Shown: positions 14,404 through 64,000, numbered from the stretch's first letter. The stretch: DNA of 64,000 bases from an uncultured Nanoarchaeota archaeon (GCA_963743615.1 CAVUQF010000003.1:60999-124998); one strand, 5' to 3'. The notes: generated by a model not told the origin, from the sequence alone. A program made the numbers and translations.

Positions 14404-14525
14404 GAGCCTATAGCTCAGCCAGGTTAGAGCACCGCTCTTATATGATTGCAGTTCATATGAACTGCATCTCTCCCAGATATGTCTAAGAGAGGCGGGGGTC
14501 CACGGTTCAAATCCGTGTAGGCTCA
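14404..14525 (+). tRNA. tRNA-Ile (anticodon UAU) with a 47-nt intron at the canonical 37/38 position
   Basis: Acceptor GAGCCTA/TAGGCTC, D-arm GCTC-AGCCAGGTTA-GAGC, anticodon stem CCGCT/GGCGG, loop C-T-TAT-A with the intron at 14443-14489, T-arm CACGG-TTCAAAT-CCGTG. Confidence 0.7.
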
Positions 14526-19590: not shown

Positions 19591-20205
19591 GTGAAAAAAA
19601 GTTCGTTGTTCACACTTTTATTTGCAATTAACAGTTTTATTCTGCCTTCTTTAGCAAGGGCTCCGCCAATGTCTGATTTGCCCCCTTTAGCTTATGAAAC
19701 TGGGCCCACATACGGTGGAGCTATTGAAAATTTTGTAAATGAGAAGAAAAACGAGGATTTTTTAAATTACAAGATTTATAATTTTAATAGCGATAGTGAT
19801 GATAGACTTTTGGCTAGGATGATCTTTGGAGAAGGGGAAAGTCTCAGCAGGGCGGAAAAAATCGAGATTGCCTATACAGCCATCCATAGGGTTGAGCAAG
19901 GGTATGATAAAAGTCTTAGAGGGGCTATACTCCGTCTTGATCAGTATTCTTGCTTTAATGAGGGTACAGATAATTCTATTTTCTTGAAGGACCCTCTAAG
20001 ACACAATCCGAAGGAGTTTTTTGCATCCTTAGAAATTGCGATAGGGATTTTGGAAGGTAAAATCAAAGATCCTAAGGATGGCGCAACTTATTATTATGAT
20101 CCTAAAGTGCTTAAGACTCCTCCAGAATGGACAAAAGGCTTAGAAGAAATCAAGAGACCTGGCTTTCATCATAGATATTATAAGGAGCGAAGGCTTAGCG
20201 CTTAA
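19591..20205 (+). CDS. Secreted cell-wall (peptidoglycan) hydrolase, SleB/Hydrolase_2 family
   Basis: GTG start, signal peptide, and 'LLARMIFGEGES...AIHRV...QYSCFN...GATYYYDP...HRYYK', collinear with the SleB domain. Confidence 0.65.
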   Translation: MKKSSLFTLLFAINSFILPSLARAPPMSDLPPLAYETGPTYGGAIENFVNEKKNEDFLNYKIYNFNSDSDDRLLARMIFGEGESLSRAEKIEIAYTAIHRVEQGYDKSLRGAILRLDQYSCFNEGTDNSIFLKDPLRHNPKEFFASLEIAIGILEGKIKDPKDGATYYYDPKVLKTPPEWTKGLEEIKRPGFHHRYYKERRLSA

Positions 20206-43874: not shown

Positions 43875-44729
43875 TTATTTGATAAATTTTATCTTGTTGA
43901 TTTTGCCTTTTTTGTCATCCAAGTCTATTACCACCGCTCTTCCATCATGAGCTGCTCCCGGGTTTACGCAAACAGTTTTTCCTACTTTTTGCTCTCCATA
44001 AGATTCATGAATATGGCCCCCAAGATGCAGTAATGGCTGATATTTTTCTACCATTTCTCTTGCAAGTTTAGAACCTGCATGTTTATTCCTTGCTTCTTTA
44101 TGAGCTTCTTTAGATGTTATTTTATCAAGTTTGGTATGATATATAATGTTGTGAGATACAAAAATTATTCTTTTTAGTTTGTTTTCGTTTTTAAATTTTC
44201 TAAAAAGCTTTTCCAACTTTTCTTTATGATTTCTGTAATTTTTACCTTTTGGTTCTCCCGGAGCACTATGCCCCCTCATTCCAATAAAAATATAATTTCC
44301 AAATTTGAAATAGGAATAATCAAATCTTTTTATCCTCTTATATTTCTTAATTATATCTGGAAAAGCATTATATTCCATCCAATTTGGCATTGATCTTTCT
44401 CTTTTCTCAGGCATATCGTAGACATCAGGAGGAGGATAGTCCACATTCCCAAGAACAGTGTATACTGGAATATTGAGACTGTTTAATTCCTTTAATGGTT
44501 TTTCACCAAGTCTAAAATCTTCAAGAACTAATTTTCTGTATTTTTTCTTTCCTATGAATTCCCATAACTCTTTCTCGTTTCCGTAACAATATTTGAACCA
44601 GATTTTTCGATAATGAAAAGGAGGGAAATCTCCTATAGAAATAATTAAATCAATTTTTTGATTTTTTATAATCTTCTTGAATTTGGAAGGGAACTCTCCA
44701 TGGAAATCCCCAATAACAAGAGCTTTCAT
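43875..44729 (-). CDS. Calcineurin-like metallophosphoesterase
   Basis: 'LVIGDFHGEF' and 'GGHIHESYG'. Confidence 0.7.
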   Translation of the reverse strand: MKALVIGDFHGEFPSKFKKIIKNQKIDLIISIGDFPPFHYRKIWFKYCYGNEKELWEFIGKKKYRKLVLEDFRLGEKPLKELNSLNIPVYTVLGNVDYPPPDVYDMPEKRERSMPNWMEYNAFPDIIKKYKRIKRFDYSYFKFGNYIFIGMRGHSAPGEPKGKNYRNHKEKLEKLFRKFKNENKLKRIIFVSHNIIYHTKLDKITSKEAHKEARNKHAGSKLAREMVEKYQPLLHLGGHIHESYGEQKVGKTVCVNPGAAHDGRAVVIDLDDKKGKINKIKFIK

Positions 44730-47826: not shown

Positions 47827-48024
47827 TTATTTCTTTCTTTTATTCCTAATTAGGAGAATACATATGACTACTGCCAATATAGAAATTCCAAACATAATCC
47901 AAGAGTATAAAATTGGATTACGACCTTGAATAATTTTCCAAACATTGATTATACTCATAAGACCAACACCTATCCAGAAAGCAACAGCCCATTCTAATTG
48001 TCTTTTGTTTTTCATTACCAGCAA
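47827..48024 (-). CDS. Small membrane protein (65 aa, 2 TM helices)
   Basis: Hydrophobic ORF. Confidence 0.4.
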   Translation of the reverse strand: MLVMKNKRQLEWAVAFWIGVGLMSIINVWKIIQGRNPILYSWIMFGISILAVVICILLIRNKRKK

Positions 48025-48298
48025 ATTAAGATAGGGTATTTTAAAAAGCTGTCTAAAATCTACAGCTTCTTTTTTGGAAGAAGCCTCTTTACTAGTCTAA
48101 TTTTATCTCTTTTATTTCTAGCCTTGATTTTTCTCATGAAGACTTTTCTTGATTCTCTCCTTCCGCCTGTTTTGAGTTTCATTTTATTTGCAATAAATCT
48201 CCATTTAATAATTTAATGTTTCCAACTTTTAATTGAATTTCTTTGTTTATGGATTTATAATCCAAAATTATTAAAAGGTTAGAAGTGTCTTTTTATAA

Positions 48299-49093
48299 AT
48301 GGAAGCTCACATGGAGCCAGTCAATAAGGTAGAAGAGAAGATTATTGAAATAGGAATAAAGATAGCCAGACGAGGAGAAGGGGCAGTATTCATTCTTGGA
48401 GACAAGCTAAAGAATTACAAGTTTCTTGTTCCTCAAGATGTAAGGTCATTTAGCATAATTGATAATCCTAAGACTGCGGAATCGCTTGCATTACAGGATG
48501 GATGCGTGTGGGTTGATCAAATGGGAATTTTGAAAGGGTATGGAATAGCTATGACCAGACTTAATCCCATAATGAATAAAGGTACCAGACATGCCAGCGC
48601 TTCTTACGCTTCCAAACAGGGGAATAAAGTATTTTTGATCTCCCAGGAAGACAAAAAAATAAAGATTTTTATTAAAGGCAAAATAGTCATGGAGATAGAT
48701 GCTCTTGAAAAAGGAATAGAGAAAAAAACCAGTGAGATAGTGAGCATTTTCGAGAGTTTGGGCGCGGGAACATTAAGTGTTATGATAATGGGGGCTGCTT
48801 CCGCATTGATACCCTCTTTGTCTATGTTTGCATTTCCAATCTTGCCAGGGATAACTATCTTTACTTCGCTTTATGCATCTGCAAAGTCTATAAGGAATCT
48901 CCCTCCTGAGGGGGGCGAGAAGAAAAGAAGGATAATGAAGATTGTTATAGGAGGTATTGTTATAATCTTAGGTGTTGGAATTATGTTGATCCGTTCCAGT
49001 GTGGATATAAGACTGCGTTTGCTGACTGGAGGGGTTATCTCAGTTATTGGTTTCTTTGTCGCTTTTACGAGTAGAAAAAGGAAAGTAGAATGA
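48299..49093 (+). CDS. DAC (diadenylate cyclase, DisA_N)-domain protein with a C-terminal triple-TM anchor
   Basis: 'GAVFILGD' is followed 39 aa later by 'DGC', then 25 aa later by 'GTRHASA', then 'KVFLISQEDKKIKIF'. Spacing and motifs mirror CdaA (GALIV...HDGA...GTRHRAA...VVVSEETG). Three C-terminal TM helices follow. Confidence 0.65.
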   Translation: MEAHMEPVNKVEEKIIEIGIKIARRGEGAVFILGDKLKNYKFLVPQDVRSFSIIDNPKTAESLALQDGCVWVDQMGILKGYGIAMTRLNPIMNKGTRHASASYASKQGNKVFLISQEDKKIKIFIKGKIVMEIDALEKGIEKKTSEIVSIFESLGAGTLSVMIMGAASALIPSLSMFAFPILPGITIFTSLYASAKSIRNLPPEGGEKKRRIMKIVIGGIVIILGVGIMLIRSSVDIRLRLLTGGVISVIGFFVAFTSRKRKVE

Positions 49094-49725
49094 GCTCCAA
49101 GAAGGTGAAGAATTTTTTTAAAAAATTCTGGTTTTTACTTTGGAAAGATAATAGTTTCAAAGGATGGATTTTCTCTCTGATGTTTATTTTTGTTTTTATA
49201 AGATTTCTTTTCTTTCCTTTGCTTGCTTTAACGACAGGGACCTCTCTTCCTCTTGCAATTGTTGAATCGTGCAGTATGTATCACCAAGGGAATATTTTTT
49301 CTGACTTTAATTCTTGGTTTCAGAGGCATGATTTGAAGTATGAAGCATTAAATATAACAGAACAACAATTTGATAGATTCAGTTTGCATAATGGATTTGG
49401 TAAAGGAGATATTCTCTTTATTGTGGTGGTAAAACCGCAAAATATTCATGTTGGAGATATAATAGTGTATAATGCGCAGCAGCAGGCTCCAATTATTCAT
49501 AGAGTTATAAATATCACCAATAATAGTGGGACGTATTTCTTTTCGACAGAAGGAGATAATAATAACGGGCAGCTGAGTTTTGAGAATGGAATAAACCAGA
49601 ATCAAATTATTGGAAAAGCTTCATTTATGGTGGCTCCTTATATTGGATGGATAAAACTGATATTTTATCAAAATCAAGAGCCAGTTTATGAGAGGGGCTC
49701 TTGTTCGGAAACTCCCTCAAGTTGA
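49090..49725 (+). CDS. Signal peptidase I (archaeal Sec11/S26-like)
   Basis: N-terminal TM helix; 'ESCSMYHQG' SxSMxP-like catalytic Ser box; 'GDIIVY' box. The start overlaps the DAC gene stop (ATGA). Confidence 0.6.
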   Translation: MSSKKVKNFFKKFWFLLWKDNSFKGWIFSLMFIFVFIRFLFFPLLALTTGTSLPLAIVESCSMYHQGNIFSDFNSWFQRHDLKYEALNITEQQFDRFSLHNGFGKGDILFIVVVKPQNIHVGDIIVYNAQQQAPIIHRVINITNNSGTYFFSTEGDNNNGQLSFENGINQNQIIGKASFMVAPYIGWIKLIFYQNQEPVYERGSCSETPSS

Positions 49726-49780: not shown

Positions 49781-50098
49781 ATGGAATTTTGTCCTAAGTG
49801 CGGAGCTGTTTTGATTGAAAAAACAAAAAATCTGGGTTGTCCTAGGTGTGGATACTCTAGCAAGACCAGCAAGGCAAAGGGTAAAATCACAACTTCAGAA
49901 AAGATGGTAGAACATGAAGATATAGGGGTAGTTTCGGATAAGGGAGAACAACCTTTGCCAGTAGTTCTGTTTAATTGTAGAAAATGCGGAAATGACAAGG
50001 CATATTTTTGGACAATTCAGACACGTTCTGGTGATGAGGCTGAGACAAAGTTCTTTAAGTGTACAAAGTGCGGGAATACTGTTAGGGAATATAGATGA
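49781..50098 (+). CDS. tfs: Transcription factor S (TFS)
   Basis: N-terminal Zn ribbon 'CPKCGAVL...CPRCG' and a C-terminal TFIIS-type ribbon 'CRKCGNDKAYFWTIQTRSGDEAETKFFKCTKCG'. Start placed at MEFCPKCG inside the longer ORF. Confidence 0.8.
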   Translation: MEFCPKCGAVLIEKTKNLGCPRCGYSSKTSKAKGKITTSEKMVEHEDIGVVSDKGEQPLPVVLFNCRKCGNDKAYFWTIQTRSGDEAETKFFKCTKCGNTVREYR

Positions 50099-51522: not shown

Positions 51523-52266
51523 TTAATCTAAGTCCTTGACTTTTCCGAAATCATATACTTCATCTTTTCCTATTACAAAAATTTCAGAATTAAGAACAGC
51601 TTCTTTTGGGAGTATAGAAAAATATTTCTGGTAATCTTCCTTGTAATCATTTACGCTCGTTCCTTCTATTATTTCAAAAAAGCTTGGAAGTATAATAATC
51701 TCTTTTTTTTGGAATTGTGTTACTAAAAAACATTTGAATTTCTCTCTTTTTACATTTGCTTGATCTGAAATTATAACAGAAGGATGCATATGCCCCATTA
51801 CGATTGTCTTTATTCTTTCATCATAGATTTCGGGAAAGGACATATGTCCGTGGATAAAGCAGACATCATCTTTTATGTAATAATTTTTCATCTTTTTTCC
51901 AGAATAGTCTATTTTGTCATGATTTCCTTTTATAAGGATAATCTCATTATCATCAAAATATTTTTTAAGAAAATCTAAAACTTCATCAAACATTCTTCTT
52001 TCACCGAATTCAAATCCAAAATAGTGCTTTATATCCCCTAGAAAGACTATTTTTTTCATTTCAAATCCTTTCTCTTTTATTGCGGTGAAAATTTTTTTTA
52101 AGTCTTCTATAGTTTCTTTTGTCTGGCTTTCGGGAATTGCCACTCCGGACTGCCTGAGCATTAGTTCATAACCTAAATGTAAATCTCCAACAGCCAGAAT
52201 TCCGCTTTTTGGGAAAAATACAGTTTTGTCTATGAAGGTATAATCTTTTGGTTCTTGTTTTCTCAT
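51523..52266 (-). CDS. Calcineurin-like metallophosphoesterase (ICC-like)
   Basis: 'AVGDLHLG', 'GNHD' and 'GHMH' motifs. Confidence 0.7.
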   Translation of the reverse strand: MRKQEPKDYTFIDKTVFFPKSGILAVGDLHLGYELMLRQSGVAIPESQTKETIEDLKKIFTAIKEKGFEMKKIVFLGDIKHYFGFEFGERRMFDEVLDFLKKYFDDNEIILIKGNHDKIDYSGKKMKNYYIKDDVCFIHGHMSFPEIYDERIKTIVMGHMHPSVIISDQANVKREKFKCFLVTQFQKKEIIILPSFFEIIEGTSVNDYKEDYQKYFSILPKEAVLNSEIFVIGKDEVYDFGKVKDLD

Positions 52267-55789: not shown

Positions 55790-57133
55790 ATGAGAAAAGA
55801 AATGGCCAAAAAAGAAGTGAGCAAAAAACAGAAAGCAATGAGATATTTTCTCTGGACCATTCTGGGAGTTGTTGCAATAATAGGGATGATTGCAGCACAG
55901 ACTATAATTTCTGATCAGCAAGTCCAGACTGATTACATAAATGCTTCAAATATAAGTTATAATGGCGGGCAACTGGGTTTAAATCCAAGCAATGGGGTTC
56001 TCATTGGAGATAGCACAACAGCTGCTTATGTAGGTCAGAATAATATTGCATATTATCTTCTCACAAATGCAGATACTTTAATGGGAACAACTATCACGAC
56101 GGATGCAGTTCCTGGGCAAACAATTCAGCAGCAGCAGGCGGTATGGGACGCAGATGCAAACAAGGCAAATTATGATTGGATAATTGTCATGGTTGGATTA
56201 AATGACTGCATAAATTATAGTGATACTTCTGCCAATATCCTCTCAAGATATCAGACCTTTATCAATGATATTGATTCAAGCAAGAAATCAAGTGCTATCG
56301 TTATAATCGCAACAATGACACCTGCAAGACAGCGTTTTTATGATTTATACGGCTCGGTAAATGGATCGATAGATTATCAATTGTGGCTTGATGTGAATAA
56401 TGGAATAATGGGCAACGGGGCAAATGCTATACAAAATGTTTCTTACAGAATAGATGAGCATACTATTGCATTAAATGACGGAAATGGAAGTCTTGCTTCT
56501 TTCTATAATGTAAGCGATAATGTTCACGAGAACAATCTTGGAAGGCAGTTAGTAGCAAACGCATTCAGGAAAACATTAAACCAGGCAGGTTATTTAACTA
56601 ATGTCCCAAGTGAGATTATCGATAATTATTTCGGGAACATAAACAATACGATCTACCTTAAAGGGGGATGGTTAAATTACTTGCAGATTCAATCAAATTC
56701 AAGTGCAGGAACAGAACCAAGCGGAGATATTATTCAGCTTCGTGTCGGAAATTGGAATACTGGAGGTAACTCTGGAATCTCGATAAGCAGACCTGCAAAT
56801 TACAGGACTTCTGGATTGTATTTCCAGACGGGAACAACTAATGATTGGTTTATAGGAACTCCTTACAATGGAGGTGCTGCAAGCACTTCTTTGACAATAG
56901 GAAGCTCTGCAGCCATTTCGGCTGAAAAGATGATAATAACAAATTCAGGAGATGTTGGAATAAATACAATCTCTCCGAATGAGACTCTATCAATAAATGG
57001 AATGATGCAGTTAAATGAGACCTTATCTCCCCCATCATGCACCGCAACTTCCAACGGGAGCATTGCAAGAAATGCAACTGGTTTAATATATTGCAATCTC
57101 GTAGGTAATTGGGTTTATCTGTATACAGGATAA
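55790..57133 (+). CDS. Membrane-anchored extracellular SGNH/GDSL hydrolase with a fibre-like C-terminal region and a Cys-containing terminal knob (paralog 1)
   Basis: Signal anchor; SGNH blocks 'LIGDSTT', 'GLNDC' and 'DNVHEN'; C-terminal 'SGDVGINTISPNETLSINGMMQLN' and 'PPSCTATSNGSIARNATGLIYCNLVGNWVYL'. Confidence 0.6.
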   Translation: MRKEMAKKEVSKKQKAMRYFLWTILGVVAIIGMIAAQTIISDQQVQTDYINASNISYNGGQLGLNPSNGVLIGDSTTAAYVGQNNIAYYLLTNADTLMGTTITTDAVPGQTIQQQQAVWDADANKANYDWIIVMVGLNDCINYSDTSANILSRYQTFINDIDSSKKSSAIVIIATMTPARQRFYDLYGSVNGSIDYQLWLDVNNGIMGNGANAIQNVSYRIDEHTIALNDGNGSLASFYNVSDNVHENNLGRQLVANAFRKTLNQAGYLTNVPSEIIDNYFGNINNTIYLKGGWLNYLQIQSNSSAGTEPSGDIIQLRVGNWNTGGNSGISISRPANYRTSGLYFQTGTTNDWFIGTPYNGGAASTSLTIGSSAAISAEKMIITNSGDVGINTISPNETLSINGMMQLNETLSPPSCTATSNGSIARNATGLIYCNLVGNWVYLYTG

Positions 57134-57137
57134 AAAA

Positions 57138-58364
57138 ATGGATGAAATAAAAACTAAGCATAAAGTATTAAGATATTCTCTCTTTACATTATTTGGAATT
57201 CTTTTGCTGGTTGTAGGAGTTTATGCTACCACAATAATCTCGGATCAGCAAACTTCTACTCCTTATATAAATGCTTCAAATATCTCATGGATTACGAATA
57301 ATAACAAAGAAGTTGTATTCGAGGGCGATAGCATTACTGATTATGTCAATAAGCCAAACTCGACATGGAGCTTGAATGTTTCTAACTCTTCCTTGTTTGC
57401 TGATGCAGTTTTTTATAATGTTGCAATGACTGGAGATACTGTCTGTAATATGACGACAGAATATGCTTCTCAAGTCCATCCTCTCGCTCCAAAGAATAAT
57501 CAGACAAATGCGTACTTCTTTTTATGGGCCGGAACAAATGATCTTTATTATGATTCAAACTCTTCAACCATTCTCTCTTGCCTTGAGATAGAATGGGCTA
57601 TGGCTCGTGCAGATGGATTTAAAGTCGTTGCGGTTACAATCACAAATAGATCGGGAGTATATATCTTAAATGGAACACAAGAGAGCAATAGAACTGCATT
57701 GAACGGAGGAATAATAGCAGCTTCTTCCCAATATGATTATTTGATAAGAGCCGATTTGATTCTTCCAGATCCAACAAACACAACCTACTTTGTTGATGGA
57801 TTGCATCCAACTCCCGCAGGTTCTTATCTTATAGCTTCGAATTTTGTCAATAACTTTTATTCTAATCCTTATAATGAACTGAATAACTGGGAGGGAAATC
57901 TAGGAATTGGAACAACAACTCCCCCAACTGCATTAACTATAGTTGCCCCAGAAAGTTCAACCAATGGAATATTAAAGTTGCAAGTTCAGAATGGTCAGCC
58001 ATTCGATTTTGCAGGAATTTCTTTCTTTGCAAAAAGTCAATCTCCGACAGCAGGATCTCTTAATTGGATGATTTCAACAAATTATAACCAATATGGAGAG
58101 CTTAATTTTCTTAGAAGCACCAGTTCATCAACAAATCCTACAATAAGCACTTTAGATCTTATGAGTAGCGGAAATGTTGGAGTGAATACAACAGCTCCAA
58201 TTTCAACTTTGGAAGTAAATGGAAATGCAACAATAGACCAGCTTATGAATCTCTCTGTGATGAATATTCCCCCATGTGGAGCTTCGACTAATGGAAGCAT
58301 AGCTCGAAATTCAAGTGGAGATTATGTATGCGGAGCAAACGGAGTATGGAAGTTCTTGGGATAA
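57138..58364 (+). CDS. Membrane-anchored extracellular SGNH/GDSL hydrolase with a fibre-like C-terminal region (paralog 2)
   Basis: Shares with paralog 1 the N-terminal 'TIISDQQ..T.YINASNIS' and the C-terminal 'SGNVGVNTTAPISTLEVNGN' and 'PPCGASTNGSIARNSSGDYVCGANGVWKFL'. SGNH blocks 'FEGDSIT', 'GTNDL' and 'DGLHPT'. Confidence 0.6.
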   Translation: MDEIKTKHKVLRYSLFTLFGILLLVVGVYATTIISDQQTSTPYINASNISWITNNNKEVVFEGDSITDYVNKPNSTWSLNVSNSSLFADAVFYNVAMTGDTVCNMTTEYASQVHPLAPKNNQTNAYFFLWAGTNDLYYDSNSSTILSCLEIEWAMARADGFKVVAVTITNRSGVYILNGTQESNRTALNGGIIAASSQYDYLIRADLILPDPTNTTYFVDGLHPTPAGSYLIASNFVNNFYSNPYNELNNWEGNLGIGTTTPPTALTIVAPESSTNGILKLQVQNGQPFDFAGISFFAKSQSPTAGSLNWMISTNYNQYGELNFLRSTSSSTNPTISTLDLMSSGNVGVNTTAPISTLEVNGNATIDQLMNLSVMNIPPCGASTNGSIARNSSGDYVCGANGVWKFLG

Positions 58365-58365
58365 G

Positions 58366-59439
58366 ATGGAAACTAATTTAAAAAAAAAGACTGAACTGAT
58401 TTTTCTTTTAGCTTTTGCCTGCCTGATAATTCCTCTTGCTTCTGCCGTAACTTTAAGTTCTGGGGTATTCTTTGTAAGTGGGTTAAATTCTAGCATAACT
58501 ATTAATTTTCCCGTGGCTTTTGATTTATTAAACATCTCTAACGACTCTATAGTTTTTTACAATCTTAGTTATGTTCATCCTTCTAGCTGTAATGGGCAAT
58601 CTTCATTTTATAATGTTTATAGTTATGCTACTTCAAATCAAAATACTACTCTAGACCAGGTATTGCCTAGTATATCTTGTGTTGTGACCGCTAATAGCTC
58701 TTCTTCGGGGTCTGGATCAGGGGTAACTAATTATCCTCTGCTTACAACAGTTAATTCTTCCCAATCCAACGAAGCAAATTTTTCTTTAAGTACGTCCGTG
58801 TTACAAGTATTACCAATAATAAATGAGAGCCAACTTACAACAATAGAATTAGGTAATTTTTCTGGGAGTTTGACTCGAGTGGATATTATCACAAACTATA
58901 CTGTTTCAAATGTTTCTGTAAATATTTCACAAGTAAGTATAATATATCCCAATTTAGAGATAAATATTTCCGGATTTAATTATCAGTCCTTCAAAATTAC
59001 AACTCTTGGGATAAATGATTCATTAATAAAAAGTGTAACGCTGGATTTTCGTGTGAACAAAAGTTGGATTATCGTTAATAAGCTGAATTTTTCTAAGGTA
59101 ATACTACTTAGGAATACGGGGGGTGTCAAATGGATGCAATTGCAGACGATCTTTAATTCAAATGATTCTAACTATTATTATTATAATGCTACCTCTCCTG
59201 GATTTTCAAGTTATACCATATTTGCTCCATTAATTAATCCGGTATTTATTGGAGGCAGCGGGAATCGTCTGAATAATAACCTGGGAGTTATTGTCTCTAT
59301 TTTGGCAATAGTTTTTATAATTATTTGGGAGATTTTACAAATGAGGAAAAGGATATTATTCGGCAGTTCTCACAGCTTTCTTAAATTTATTAAAAAAAGA
59401 CATTATAAAAAGTTTTCTTTGAGAAAGAAGTGGAAGTAA
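58366..59439 (+). CDS. N-glycosylation-rich surface protein with signal peptide and a C-terminal TM anchor plus basic tail
   Basis: Starts 'METNLKKKTELIFLLAFACLIIPLASA'; many N-x-S/T sequons; C-terminal 'GVIVSILAIVFIIIWEIL' followed by K/R-rich residues. Confidence 0.55.
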   Translation: METNLKKKTELIFLLAFACLIIPLASAVTLSSGVFFVSGLNSSITINFPVAFDLLNISNDSIVFYNLSYVHPSSCNGQSSFYNVYSYATSNQNTTLDQVLPSISCVVTANSSSSGSGSGVTNYPLLTTVNSSQSNEANFSLSTSVLQVLPIINESQLTTIELGNFSGSLTRVDIITNYTVSNVSVNISQVSIIYPNLEINISGFNYQSFKITTLGINDSLIKSVTLDFRVNKSWIIVNKLNFSKVILLRNTGGVKWMQLQTIFNSNDSNYYYYNATSPGFSSYTIFAPLINPVFIGGSGNRLNNNLGVIVSILAIVFIIIWEILQMRKRILFGSSHSFLKFIKKRHYKKFSLRKKWK

Positions 59440-59470: not shown

Positions 59471-60085
59471 ATGACTCAGAAAAAGTCCAGAATTTTGGCG
59501 GTAGGGGATATTCATGGAAATACTCGCTTTGTGAGACAGCTAGCTGAGAAAGTTAAGGAACAAAATATTGATTTAGTGATATTGGCTGGAGATCTTGTTC
59601 TTTCAGAAGATCAGGTAACAGGCATTATTGGTCCCTTTGCAAAGTTCAAAAAGAAAGTTCTTTTGATTCCCGGGAATCATGAAACTCCGGCAACAATTGA
59701 TTTTCTTGCGGGAATGTATAACAATGTAAAAAATATTCATGGATACTCTTTTGTGAAAGATGATCTAGGGATATTTGGAGCGGGAGGAGCAGATATGGGA
59801 ATAAATATGATAAGTGATTCTGAGATCTTTTATTTATTAAAGAGAGGATATGAAGGAGTTAAAGGCCTGAAGAAAAAAATAATGGTAACACATATGCATC
59901 CCCAAGGAAGTAAATCAGAATTTTCGGGGTTTGAGGGTTCGGAGGCAATAAGAAATGCAATAAAATATTTTCAACCAGACATTTTAATTAACTCACATAT
60001 ACATGAGGCAGGGGGTATGGAAGAAACAATTGGCAAGACTAAGGTGATAAATGTTTCTGGAAAAGAGGCAATTTTTGAAATATAA
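59471..60085 (+). CDS. Calcineurin-like metallophosphoesterase
   Basis: 'AVGDIHGN', 'GNHE' and 'THMHPQG'. Confidence 0.7.
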   Translation: MTQKKSRILAVGDIHGNTRFVRQLAEKVKEQNIDLVILAGDLVLSEDQVTGIIGPFAKFKKKVLLIPGNHETPATIDFLAGMYNNVKNIHGYSFVKDDLGIFGAGGADMGINMISDSEIFYLLKRGYEGVKGLKKKIMVTHMHPQGSKSEFSGFEGSEAIRNAIKYFQPDILINSHIHEAGGMEETIGKTKVINVSGKEAIFEI

Positions 60086-63591: not shown

Positions 63592-64000
63592 CTATTCTAC
63601 TGTTACAGATTTCGCAAGGTTTCGGGGTTTGTCCACATCTAGTCCTTTTAGATCTGCAATAGAATATGCAAGAATCTGAAGAGGAATCACATTAAGTATT
63701 GGAGATAATTCTTCTAATGTTTCTGGAACCTCAATTGTATAATCTGCAATTTTTTTAATTTCAGAGTTATTTTCATTTGTTATTGCTATTATAACTCCAT
63801 TTCTTGCTCGGACTTCTTGCATATTGCTTAGTATCTTGCTAGAAGTGTCTGATTTTGTAGCAATAAATACAGTTGGCATATTTTCATCAACTAGGGCAAT
63901 AGGTCCGTGTTTCATTTCTGCGGCAGGGTATCCTTCTGCGTGGATATATGAAATTTCTTTTAACTTCAGCGCACCTTCCAATGCTACTGGGAAATTTATC
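63592..64000 (-). CDS. glmS: Glucosamine-6-phosphate synthase (GlmS), C-terminal SIS domain; gene truncated by the window edge
   Basis: '[20 protein letters not shown]' and the characteristic C-terminal end '...[11 protein letters not shown]'. Confidence 0.75.

Follow-up and report, generated by a model that had tools for sequence, protein, structure and literature searches.

The 64,000-nucleotide stretch of DNA analyzed here (GCA_963743615.1 CAVUQF010000003.1:60999-124998, hereafter the window) comes from an uncultured Nanoarchaeota archaeon and encodes, at positions 48299-49093 (+), a 264-residue protein with a diadenylate cyclase (DAC) domain at its N-terminus and a hydrophobic region at its C-terminus. 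The DAC domain is genuine, its resemblance to known cyclases being far beyond chance. Judging from sequence and conservation, the protein is probably an active, membrane-tethered cyclase, and it belongs to an uncharacterized family that is likely specific to Nanoarchaeota-type lineages of the DPANN archaea. An original prediction had described it as an inverted-topology cyclase-like membrane protein, perhaps a pseudo-enzyme, translationally coupled to a signal peptidase. DAC enzymes are already known as a family, a sister protein is already labeled as one by NCBI, and nothing here amounts to a new type of system; the interest lies in the family as a whole, in cyclic di-adenosine monophosphate (c-di-AMP) among DPANN archaea and in a conserved hairpin that may control a cyclase, rather than in this locus or its peptidase neighbor.

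The gene and its product display the following features (window coordinates and strand):
48299..49093 (+): gene for the DAC and membrane-anchor protein, an open reading frame with 17 close homologs and 126 genome loci; ratio of nonsynonymous to synonymous substitution rates (dN/dS) ~0.04 versus the sister species
48320..48700 (+): DAC (DisA_N) catalytic domain, residues 8-134
48497..48505 (+): DGC, residues 67-69, counterpart of the DGA motif, aligned to CdaA DGA
48539..48541 (+): Tyr81, counterpart of the adenine-stacking Tyr187 of L. monocytogenes CdaA, aligned to the Y of CdaA AYLPLS; 82/82 family members
48581..48598 (+): GTRHAS, residues 95-100, counterpart of GTRHRA (RHR motif) without the second Arg, from the family alignment
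48641..48649 (+): S115-Q116-E117, counterpart of the S-E-E strand of CdaA (VVSEET), aligned to CdaA vSEE
48704..48754 (+): conserved charged linker, residues 136-152, LEKGIEKKTSEIVSIFE, from conservation; modeled as helical at low confidence
48755..48877 (+): hydrophobic Gly/Pro-rich hairpin 1, residues 153-193, predicted family-wide membrane anchor; uncharged in 82/82
48878..48937 (+): basic loop, residues 194-213, with 6 K/R and 2 D/E; predicted cytoplasmic
48938..49066 (+): second hydrophobic hairpin, residues 214-256, a lineage-specific extension, from hydropathy; ~4% alignment occupancy

The DAC domain and its active site

The motifs from which the domain had been predicted, GAVFILGD (residues 28-35), DGC, GTRHAS, and VFLISQEDKKIKIF (residues 111-124), all lie where they had been placed, and the profile search and structural model proposed as checks both return a DAC domain. 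Residues 22-128 match almost the whole Pfam DAC model (PF02457; positions 7-118 of 119) with an E-value of 2.4e-6 and 27.6 bits, and relatives of the protein score 35-58 bits against it. Although a single-sequence phmmer search against the Protein Data Bank (PDB) retrieved nothing relevant, a family profile (A1) built from 17 sequences and searched against all PDB sequences gave 19 diadenylate cyclases (CdaA, CdaM, CdaS, and DisA) as its top matches, with a best E-value of 4e-5, and all significant matches are diadenylate cyclases. The AlphaFold model computed from the A1 alignment as a monomer reaches a predicted local distance difference test (pLDDT) score above 90 over residues 8-134, which adopt the mixed alpha/beta fold of DACs. 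Foldseek places only DisA, CdaA, and CdaM among the 50 PDB matches listed, at a probability of 1.0, with a TM-score of ~0.6 on the CdaA catalytic domain. The domain is divergent, sharing 12-19% identity with solved DACs; profile-profile alignment with DacZ-type DAC domains (hhalign) yields a probability of 99.4% and an E-value of 6e-22 over 129 columns.

A public gene call for the same protein (P0002, 100% identical) is 190 residues long, begins at Met75, is missing the DAC domain's first half (window 48299-48521), and has no Pfam hit, which may be why the protein looked unannotated. The long form starting at 48299 is backed by the family alignment. Its closest relative, from a Candidatus Nanoarchaeia metagenome-assembled genome, is 83% identical and carries the NCBI name 'diadenylate cyclase'.

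We counted residue conservation over an alignment of 82 distinct family members, which have diverged deeply (40-50% identity). Invariant in all 82 are R25, G28, Q46, K58, E61-S62-L63-A64-L65, D67, G68, G76, Y81, G82, G95-T96-R97-H98, S115, E117, K120, and D134 in the catalytic domain, along with G155, G157, P183, G184, and F188 in the anchor region. Apart from the counterpart of Tyr187 and the DGA and RHR motifs, the roles of these residues, presumably metal binding by Asp/Glu and contacts to ribose and phosphate among them, are ones that we assume from the alignment. Aligned to B. subtilis CdaA (numbering from PMC8573169), D67-G68 corresponds to D171-G172, R97-H98 to R203-H204, and S115 and E117 fall on the VSEE strand. 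Tyr81 aligns with Tyr187 of L. monocytogenes CdaA, which stacks on the adenine and is crucial for catalysis (PMC10167629).

The family consensus motifs are DGA (95%), GTRHSA (S 92%), and SEED, and the window protein departs from each of them. It has Cys at the third position of the DGA motif (78 Ala, 3 Cys, and 1 Ile among the 82), Ala at position 99 (76 Ser, 6 Ala, and no Arg), and SQE, a minority variant found in 4/82. The variant motifs that had suggested a pseudo-enzyme, DGC (3/82) and RHA (6/82), thus prove to be minor variants within a family whose D67, G68, Y81, T96, R97, H98, S115, and E117 are kept in 82/82. Comparison with the sister species indicates strong purifying selection on the gene, with dN/dS ~0.04 overall, ~0.02 for the linker and hairpin 1, and ~0.16 for the C-terminal extension, values that are rough since synonymous sites are saturated.

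One family member, P0023, has its DAC domain broken right after GTRH by ~329 residues (93-421) that start with CLSSDTEILT and end with FITGN, after which the protein continues with SAAYTAS. This insertion in the catalytic motif looks like an intein, with an N-terminal Cys block, a C-terminal Asn, and a +1 Ser; searches against Pfam and PDB did not confirm it, and TIGR01445 (intein_Nterm) matches residues 93-162 below threshold (11.7 bits, E-value 0.41).

The membrane anchor and the family

The DAC domain is followed by a charged linker in which conservation is at least 92% at L136, K138, E141, and E152 (n = 82), and then by a span that is rich in Gly and Pro and contains no charged residue in any of the 82 members. 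This span measures 35 residues in 75/82 and 41 in the window protein (153-193). The tail after it carries a median of four K/R and no D/E within its first 15 residues. Since 35 residues exceed the length of a single helix yet fall short of two complete membrane crossings, the span and its basic tail fit a helical hairpin that would enter and leave the membrane on the cytoplasmic side, so that the ATP-using DAC domain would stay inside the cell.

The usual family form of ~195-205 residues thus comprises DAC domain, linker, one 35-residue uncharged Gly/Pro-rich hairpin, and basic tail. The window protein has two more hydrophobic segments (214-230 and 241-256, with hydropathy peaks at 219-230 and 246-250), preceded by the loop with 6 K/R and followed by a KRK tail. 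This second pair of segments recurs in the sister protein and a few others (P0003, P0025, P0033, P0060, and P0079), is present in ~4% of the 82 genome members, and is the less constrained part of the protein (dN/dS ~0.16). The original prediction of three C-terminal transmembrane helices is therefore borne out as to the C-terminal membrane region but not as to their number, hydropathy giving four segments in two hairpins.

Searching 1.84 billion cluster representatives with HMMER retrieved only 355 proteins at E <= 1e-3, 102 of them at E <= 1e-10; among the full-length members, almost every one has 190-210 residues and matches end to end. Scanning one genome per GTDB species revealed a relative in no fewer than 126 species genomes. 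The best 80 of these 126 are almost all labeled Pacearchaeota, Woesearchaeota, Nanoarchaeota, or Nanoarchaeia, with single genomes labeled Parvarchaeum and Aenigmarchaeum and three labeled Methanosarcinales, Patescibacteria, and Bacteroidales that are probably binning errors.

A viral origin of the family was considered and rejected, as the viral contig collection that we scanned holds no family relatives. Two loci, L004 (1-12771, encoding P0003) and L010 (1-5140, encoding P0005), consist of long same-strand runs of small open reading frames with no Pfam hits, and L004 also contains an MCM fragment. Both resemble a plasmid, virus, or integrated element, yet the viral contigs contain no relatives.

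Known cyclases and alternative explanations

Five classes of characterized DACs offer points of comparison, and the window protein has an architecture unlike any of them, with its DAC domain N-terminal and its anchor C-terminal as originally predicted. By profile-profile comparison its nearest DAC domain is that of DacZ (CdaZ/DacY-type; Euryarchaeota and some bacteria), with which the family shares DGA, GTRH followed by a residue other than Arg, and archaeal hosts. DacZ is soluble and has an N-terminal PK_C-like domain (PF21755/PF02887) and a C-terminal DAC, whereas the window protein has an N-terminal DAC, no match to PF21755 or PF02887, and a hydrophobic hairpin after the DAC. With the DacZ model NF041371 the protein reaches 14.5 bits (cutoff 430), in a match confined to the end of the DAC domain. 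The S-x-E strand has a Glu that is invariant in the window family but varies among the DacZ-like sequences. CdaA (DacA; Firmicutes and many other bacteria) resembles the window protein as a predicted membrane-tethered cyclase but has the reverse domain order and another type of anchor: three N-terminal transmembrane helices, a linker, and a C-terminal DAC with the full RHR, encoded in a cdaA-cdaR-glmM operon. The window protein instead has a Gly/Pro-rich hairpin and no second Arg; its hydrophobic segments are C-terminal, TIGR00159 (CdaA) gives no match at E <= 1, and neither the window nor the 82 loci contain CdaR or GlmM neighbors. DisA is the only one of the five classes with an N-terminal DAC, as in the window protein, but it forms soluble octamers and continues with a helical spine and a C-terminal HhH DNA-binding domain, whereas the window protein has a hydrophobic C-terminus and no NF010009 or HhH match. 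CdaM (one transmembrane helix) and CdaS (two regulatory helices) carry their appendages N-terminally and have the full RHR, and both differ from the window protein in these respects.

The family is most likely an uncharacterized architectural class, set apart from CdaA, CdaM, CdaS, DacZ, and DisA. The 2023 classification by Galperin (J Bacteriol 205:e00023-23) reportedly distinguishes 22 DAC families, and a review credits it with predicting DACs for several candidate phyla of archaea. Our literature search found no paper pairing 'DAC domain' with 'C-terminal transmembrane', and the top-ranked papers on Woesearchaeota, Pacearchaeota, and Nanoarchaeota do not mention a diadenylate cyclase. The earlier remark that c-di-AMP is poorly documented in DPANN archaea agrees with the literature, which goes as far as stating that dacZ is absent there (PMC12699388, a 2025 paper).

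We propose that the protein would convert two ATP to c-di-AMP in the cytoplasm, its N-terminal DAC (~8-134) bearing what appears to be the full set of substrate- and metal-binding residues. The short charged linker would join this domain to the Gly/Pro-rich helical hairpin, which is predicted to pass in and out on the cytoplasmic side and so to leave both the DAC domain and the basic tail inside the cell; a second hairpin would have been added in the lineage of the window protein. As a DAC reaction requires two domains facing each other, the hairpins most likely keep the protein dimeric or oligomeric at the membrane and set or gate cyclase activity, in the manner of the N-terminal helices of CdaA. 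Such an enzyme could serve osmotic or envelope homeostasis.

Several observations weigh against an active cyclase. The window protein's Pfam score lies just 0.6 bits over the gathering score of 27, and the membrane part of the monomer model reaches a pLDDT of only 55-70. Among the 36 of ~73 window open reading frames searched with Pfam there is no DHH-DHHA1 or HD phosphodiesterase and no RCK_C, CBS, PII-like receptor, or K+ transporter, and an Rfam search of the whole 64 kb found no ydaO (c-di-AMP) riboswitch; missing pathway genes in a window tell little about the genome as a whole. Of the RHR motif, R97-H98 are kept, but the third residue is Ala or Ser and the second Arg is absent in 82/82, which leaves the motif incomplete. 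Changing RHR to AAA abolishes the activity of M. tuberculosis DisA, an experiment that does not isolate the third residue (PMC3328451). Together with the DGC of the window protein, its marginal Pfam score, and the lack of other c-di-AMP machinery among the window genes scanned, this could mean that the protein is a catalytically dead DAC fold, a receptor or regulator at the membrane with ATP or c-di-AMP as its ligand. We regard such a pseudo-enzyme as improbable. All other catalytic and ligand-contact positions are 100% invariant, whereas pseudo-enzymes usually lose such residues, and a receptor would need a cyclase elsewhere, and the literature reports no DacZ in DPANN archaea. The RHx state is also the rule in DacZ-type cyclases: within a set of 117 sequences (PF21755 + PF02457), taken as a proxy for the tested DacZ of H. 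volcanii, M. jannaschii, and P. yayanosii, Arg follows G[TS]RH in only one, 74 have another residue there, mostly W, A, E, or H, and 42 do not match the search pattern. This class includes biochemically proven archaeal cyclases (PMC10249747, PMC12699388). By the DacZ-type proxy, the second Arg does not seem to be a general requirement, and the full RHR appears specific to CdaA, DisA, CdaS, and CdaM. As the second Arg is likewise missing from DacZ-type cyclases, the pseudo-enzyme idea is not supported; the invariant active site, the RHx state of DacZ-type enzymes, and the purifying selection on the gene together favor an active enzyme.

Two further explanations concern what the protein makes and what it works with. 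A DAC-fold nucleotidyltransferase might yield another cyclic or linear dinucleotide, or a signal triggered by infection or host contact, as with the DACs of CBASS and other anti-phage systems, instead of serving housekeeping c-di-AMP signaling. The low identity to solved DACs (12-19%) would allow for this, as would the placement of P0003 and P0005 in mobile-element-like runs of small unknown open reading frames and the weak match of a distant relative, P0132, to the NCBIfam anti-phage model NF053872 (E-value 8e-5). It is nonetheless unlikely, given that no effector or defense gene is conserved beside the family, that none of its members was found on the viral contigs scanned, that most loci are housekeeping neighborhoods, and that the adenine-stacking Tyr and the ribose- and phosphate-contact residues are those of c-di-AMP synthases. 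The remaining explanation, to which we give very little credence, pairs the cyclase with the signal peptidase encoded directly downstream, the two being co-translated and the cyclase either acting as a regulator of the secretion machinery or undergoing processing by it. The ATGA overlap between the two genes and its presence in the sister species (83% identity) speak for a pair, as does the co-occurrence of the second hairpin with a peptidase neighbor in the window and sister genomes. This reading is largely refuted by the ~78 other loci, none of which has a peptidase within 5 kb, and P0003 has the second hairpin without a peptidase neighbor. Moreover, at least six same-strand pairs of unrelated window genes also overlap by 4 bp, the cyclase has no N-terminal signal sequence, and its DAC domain must lie in the cytoplasm for access to ATP.

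For many bacteria, as well as for haloarchaea, c-di-AMP is essential as a second messenger. This distinct, conserved DAC, with intact catalytic residues and the anchor on the opposite end, occurs in a large part of the DPANN radiation. If the protein is an active cyclase, c-di-AMP signaling would extend to genome-reduced symbiotic archaea, the family would provide a small (~200-residue) natural model for membrane control of DAC pairing, and the third residue of 'RHR' would not be a reliable marker of activity. A bolder idea, conceivable although we hold it to be rather doubtful, is that Pacearchaeota, Woesearchaeota, and Nanoarchaeia generally rely on the DAC-hairpin family for c-di-AMP synthesis, the family being a sixth, mechanistically distinct class whose invariant hairpin would sense membrane state (tension, lipid packing, or host contact) and gate face-to-face DAC pairing. 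Were this so, ultra-small, genome-reduced DPANN symbionts, which current descriptions portray as lacking such a pathway, would use c-di-AMP as their second messenger in osmotic or attachment signaling.

Gene context and other features of the window

Downstream of the cyclase gene lie two further genes on the same strand:
49090..49093 (+): ATGA stop/start overlap
49090..49725 (+): archaeal (Sec11/SipW-type) signal peptidase I, 211 residues, from TIGR02228 and motifs
49781..50098 (+): Transcription factor S (TFS/RpoM-like), third same-strand gene, from Pfam TFIIS and RPB9 zinc ribbons

Both the ATGA overlap and the Sec11-type peptidase named in the original prediction are present. The TGA stop of the DAC gene (49091-49093) shares bases with the ATG (49090-49092) of the 211-residue open reading frame, which is an archaeal Sec11/SipW-type signal peptidase I by its TIGR02228 score (76.6 bits versus a cutoff of 51.85, covering residues 101-195 only) and by its one N-terminal transmembrane helix, SCSM at 60-63, IIHRV, and GDNN at 155. 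Between the SCSM Ser box and the GD box the peptidase has ~35 extra residues (~64-100), an unusual insert for the Sec11 type.

The co-expression with secretion that had been read into this arrangement is not supported as a functional link: a peptidase neighbor with the same 4-bp overlap is found in the sister species only (L001, L002, L003, and L012). Clustering of four genes on each side over 82 loci reveals no partner conserved in more than 10 loci, and operon-based functional inference was rejected on this ground. The most regular neighbor, RNA polymerase subunit N, lies immediately downstream in 8/82 loci, and most loci are housekeeping neighborhoods with RpoN, RpoL, EF-1alpha, or RadA. 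Four-base overlaps are routine in the 64-kb window, where several convergent pairs show them too. Since such overlaps are common and the peptidase is absent elsewhere, the ATGA overlap reflects compact gene packing and not a functional module; the translational coupling is present in the sequence but carries no functional message, being an accident local to one lineage.

The TFS gene begins 55 bp downstream of the signal peptidase, and its start is backed by a 105-residue gene call at the syntenic locus L001. In the window, the DAC gene is preceded by nothing but a 283-bp intergenic gap (48016-48298), whereas the sister genome has a 448-residue gene of unknown function directly upstream (L001, 4575-5921). 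A scan for sigma-70 promoters and terminators gave 13 sites versus 9.8 expected and is uninformative in AT-rich archaeal DNA. The window has a G+C content of 34.6% and contains the archaeal housekeeping genes MCM, CDC48, Lhr helicase, and topoisomerase I, along with four tRNAs.

Three calcineurin-like metallophosphoesterase genes lie within 16 kb, at 43875-44729 (-), 51523-52266 (-), and 59471-60085 (+), with one, located 2.4 kb downstream of the cyclase gene, syntenic in the sister genome. They are conceivable candidates for a cyclic-nucleotide phosphodiesterase, although no evidence connects them with c-di-AMP. In bacteria, CdaA is linked to GlmS and GlmM. Near the window edge, a 107-residue SIS-domain open reading frame (63592-63915, -) resembles the C-terminal SIS region of GlmS; it lies 14 kb from the DAC gene on the opposite strand, and no link is implied.

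Elsewhere in the window, 55790-59439 (+) holds tandem paralogs of 447 and 408 residues with N-terminal hydrophobic segments and GDSL-lipase/acylhydrolase domains, followed by a 371-residue protein without a family hit. A 178-residue protein at 19669-20205 (+) matches the bacterial-type Cell Wall Hydrolase family (PF07486, SleB-like; 33.6 bits), a surprising match for an archaeon and one that may bear on host interaction. Rfam also identifies a tRNA of 122 nt at 14404-14525 (+) with 54.6 bits and no ARAGORN call, probably an intron-containing archaeal tRNA.

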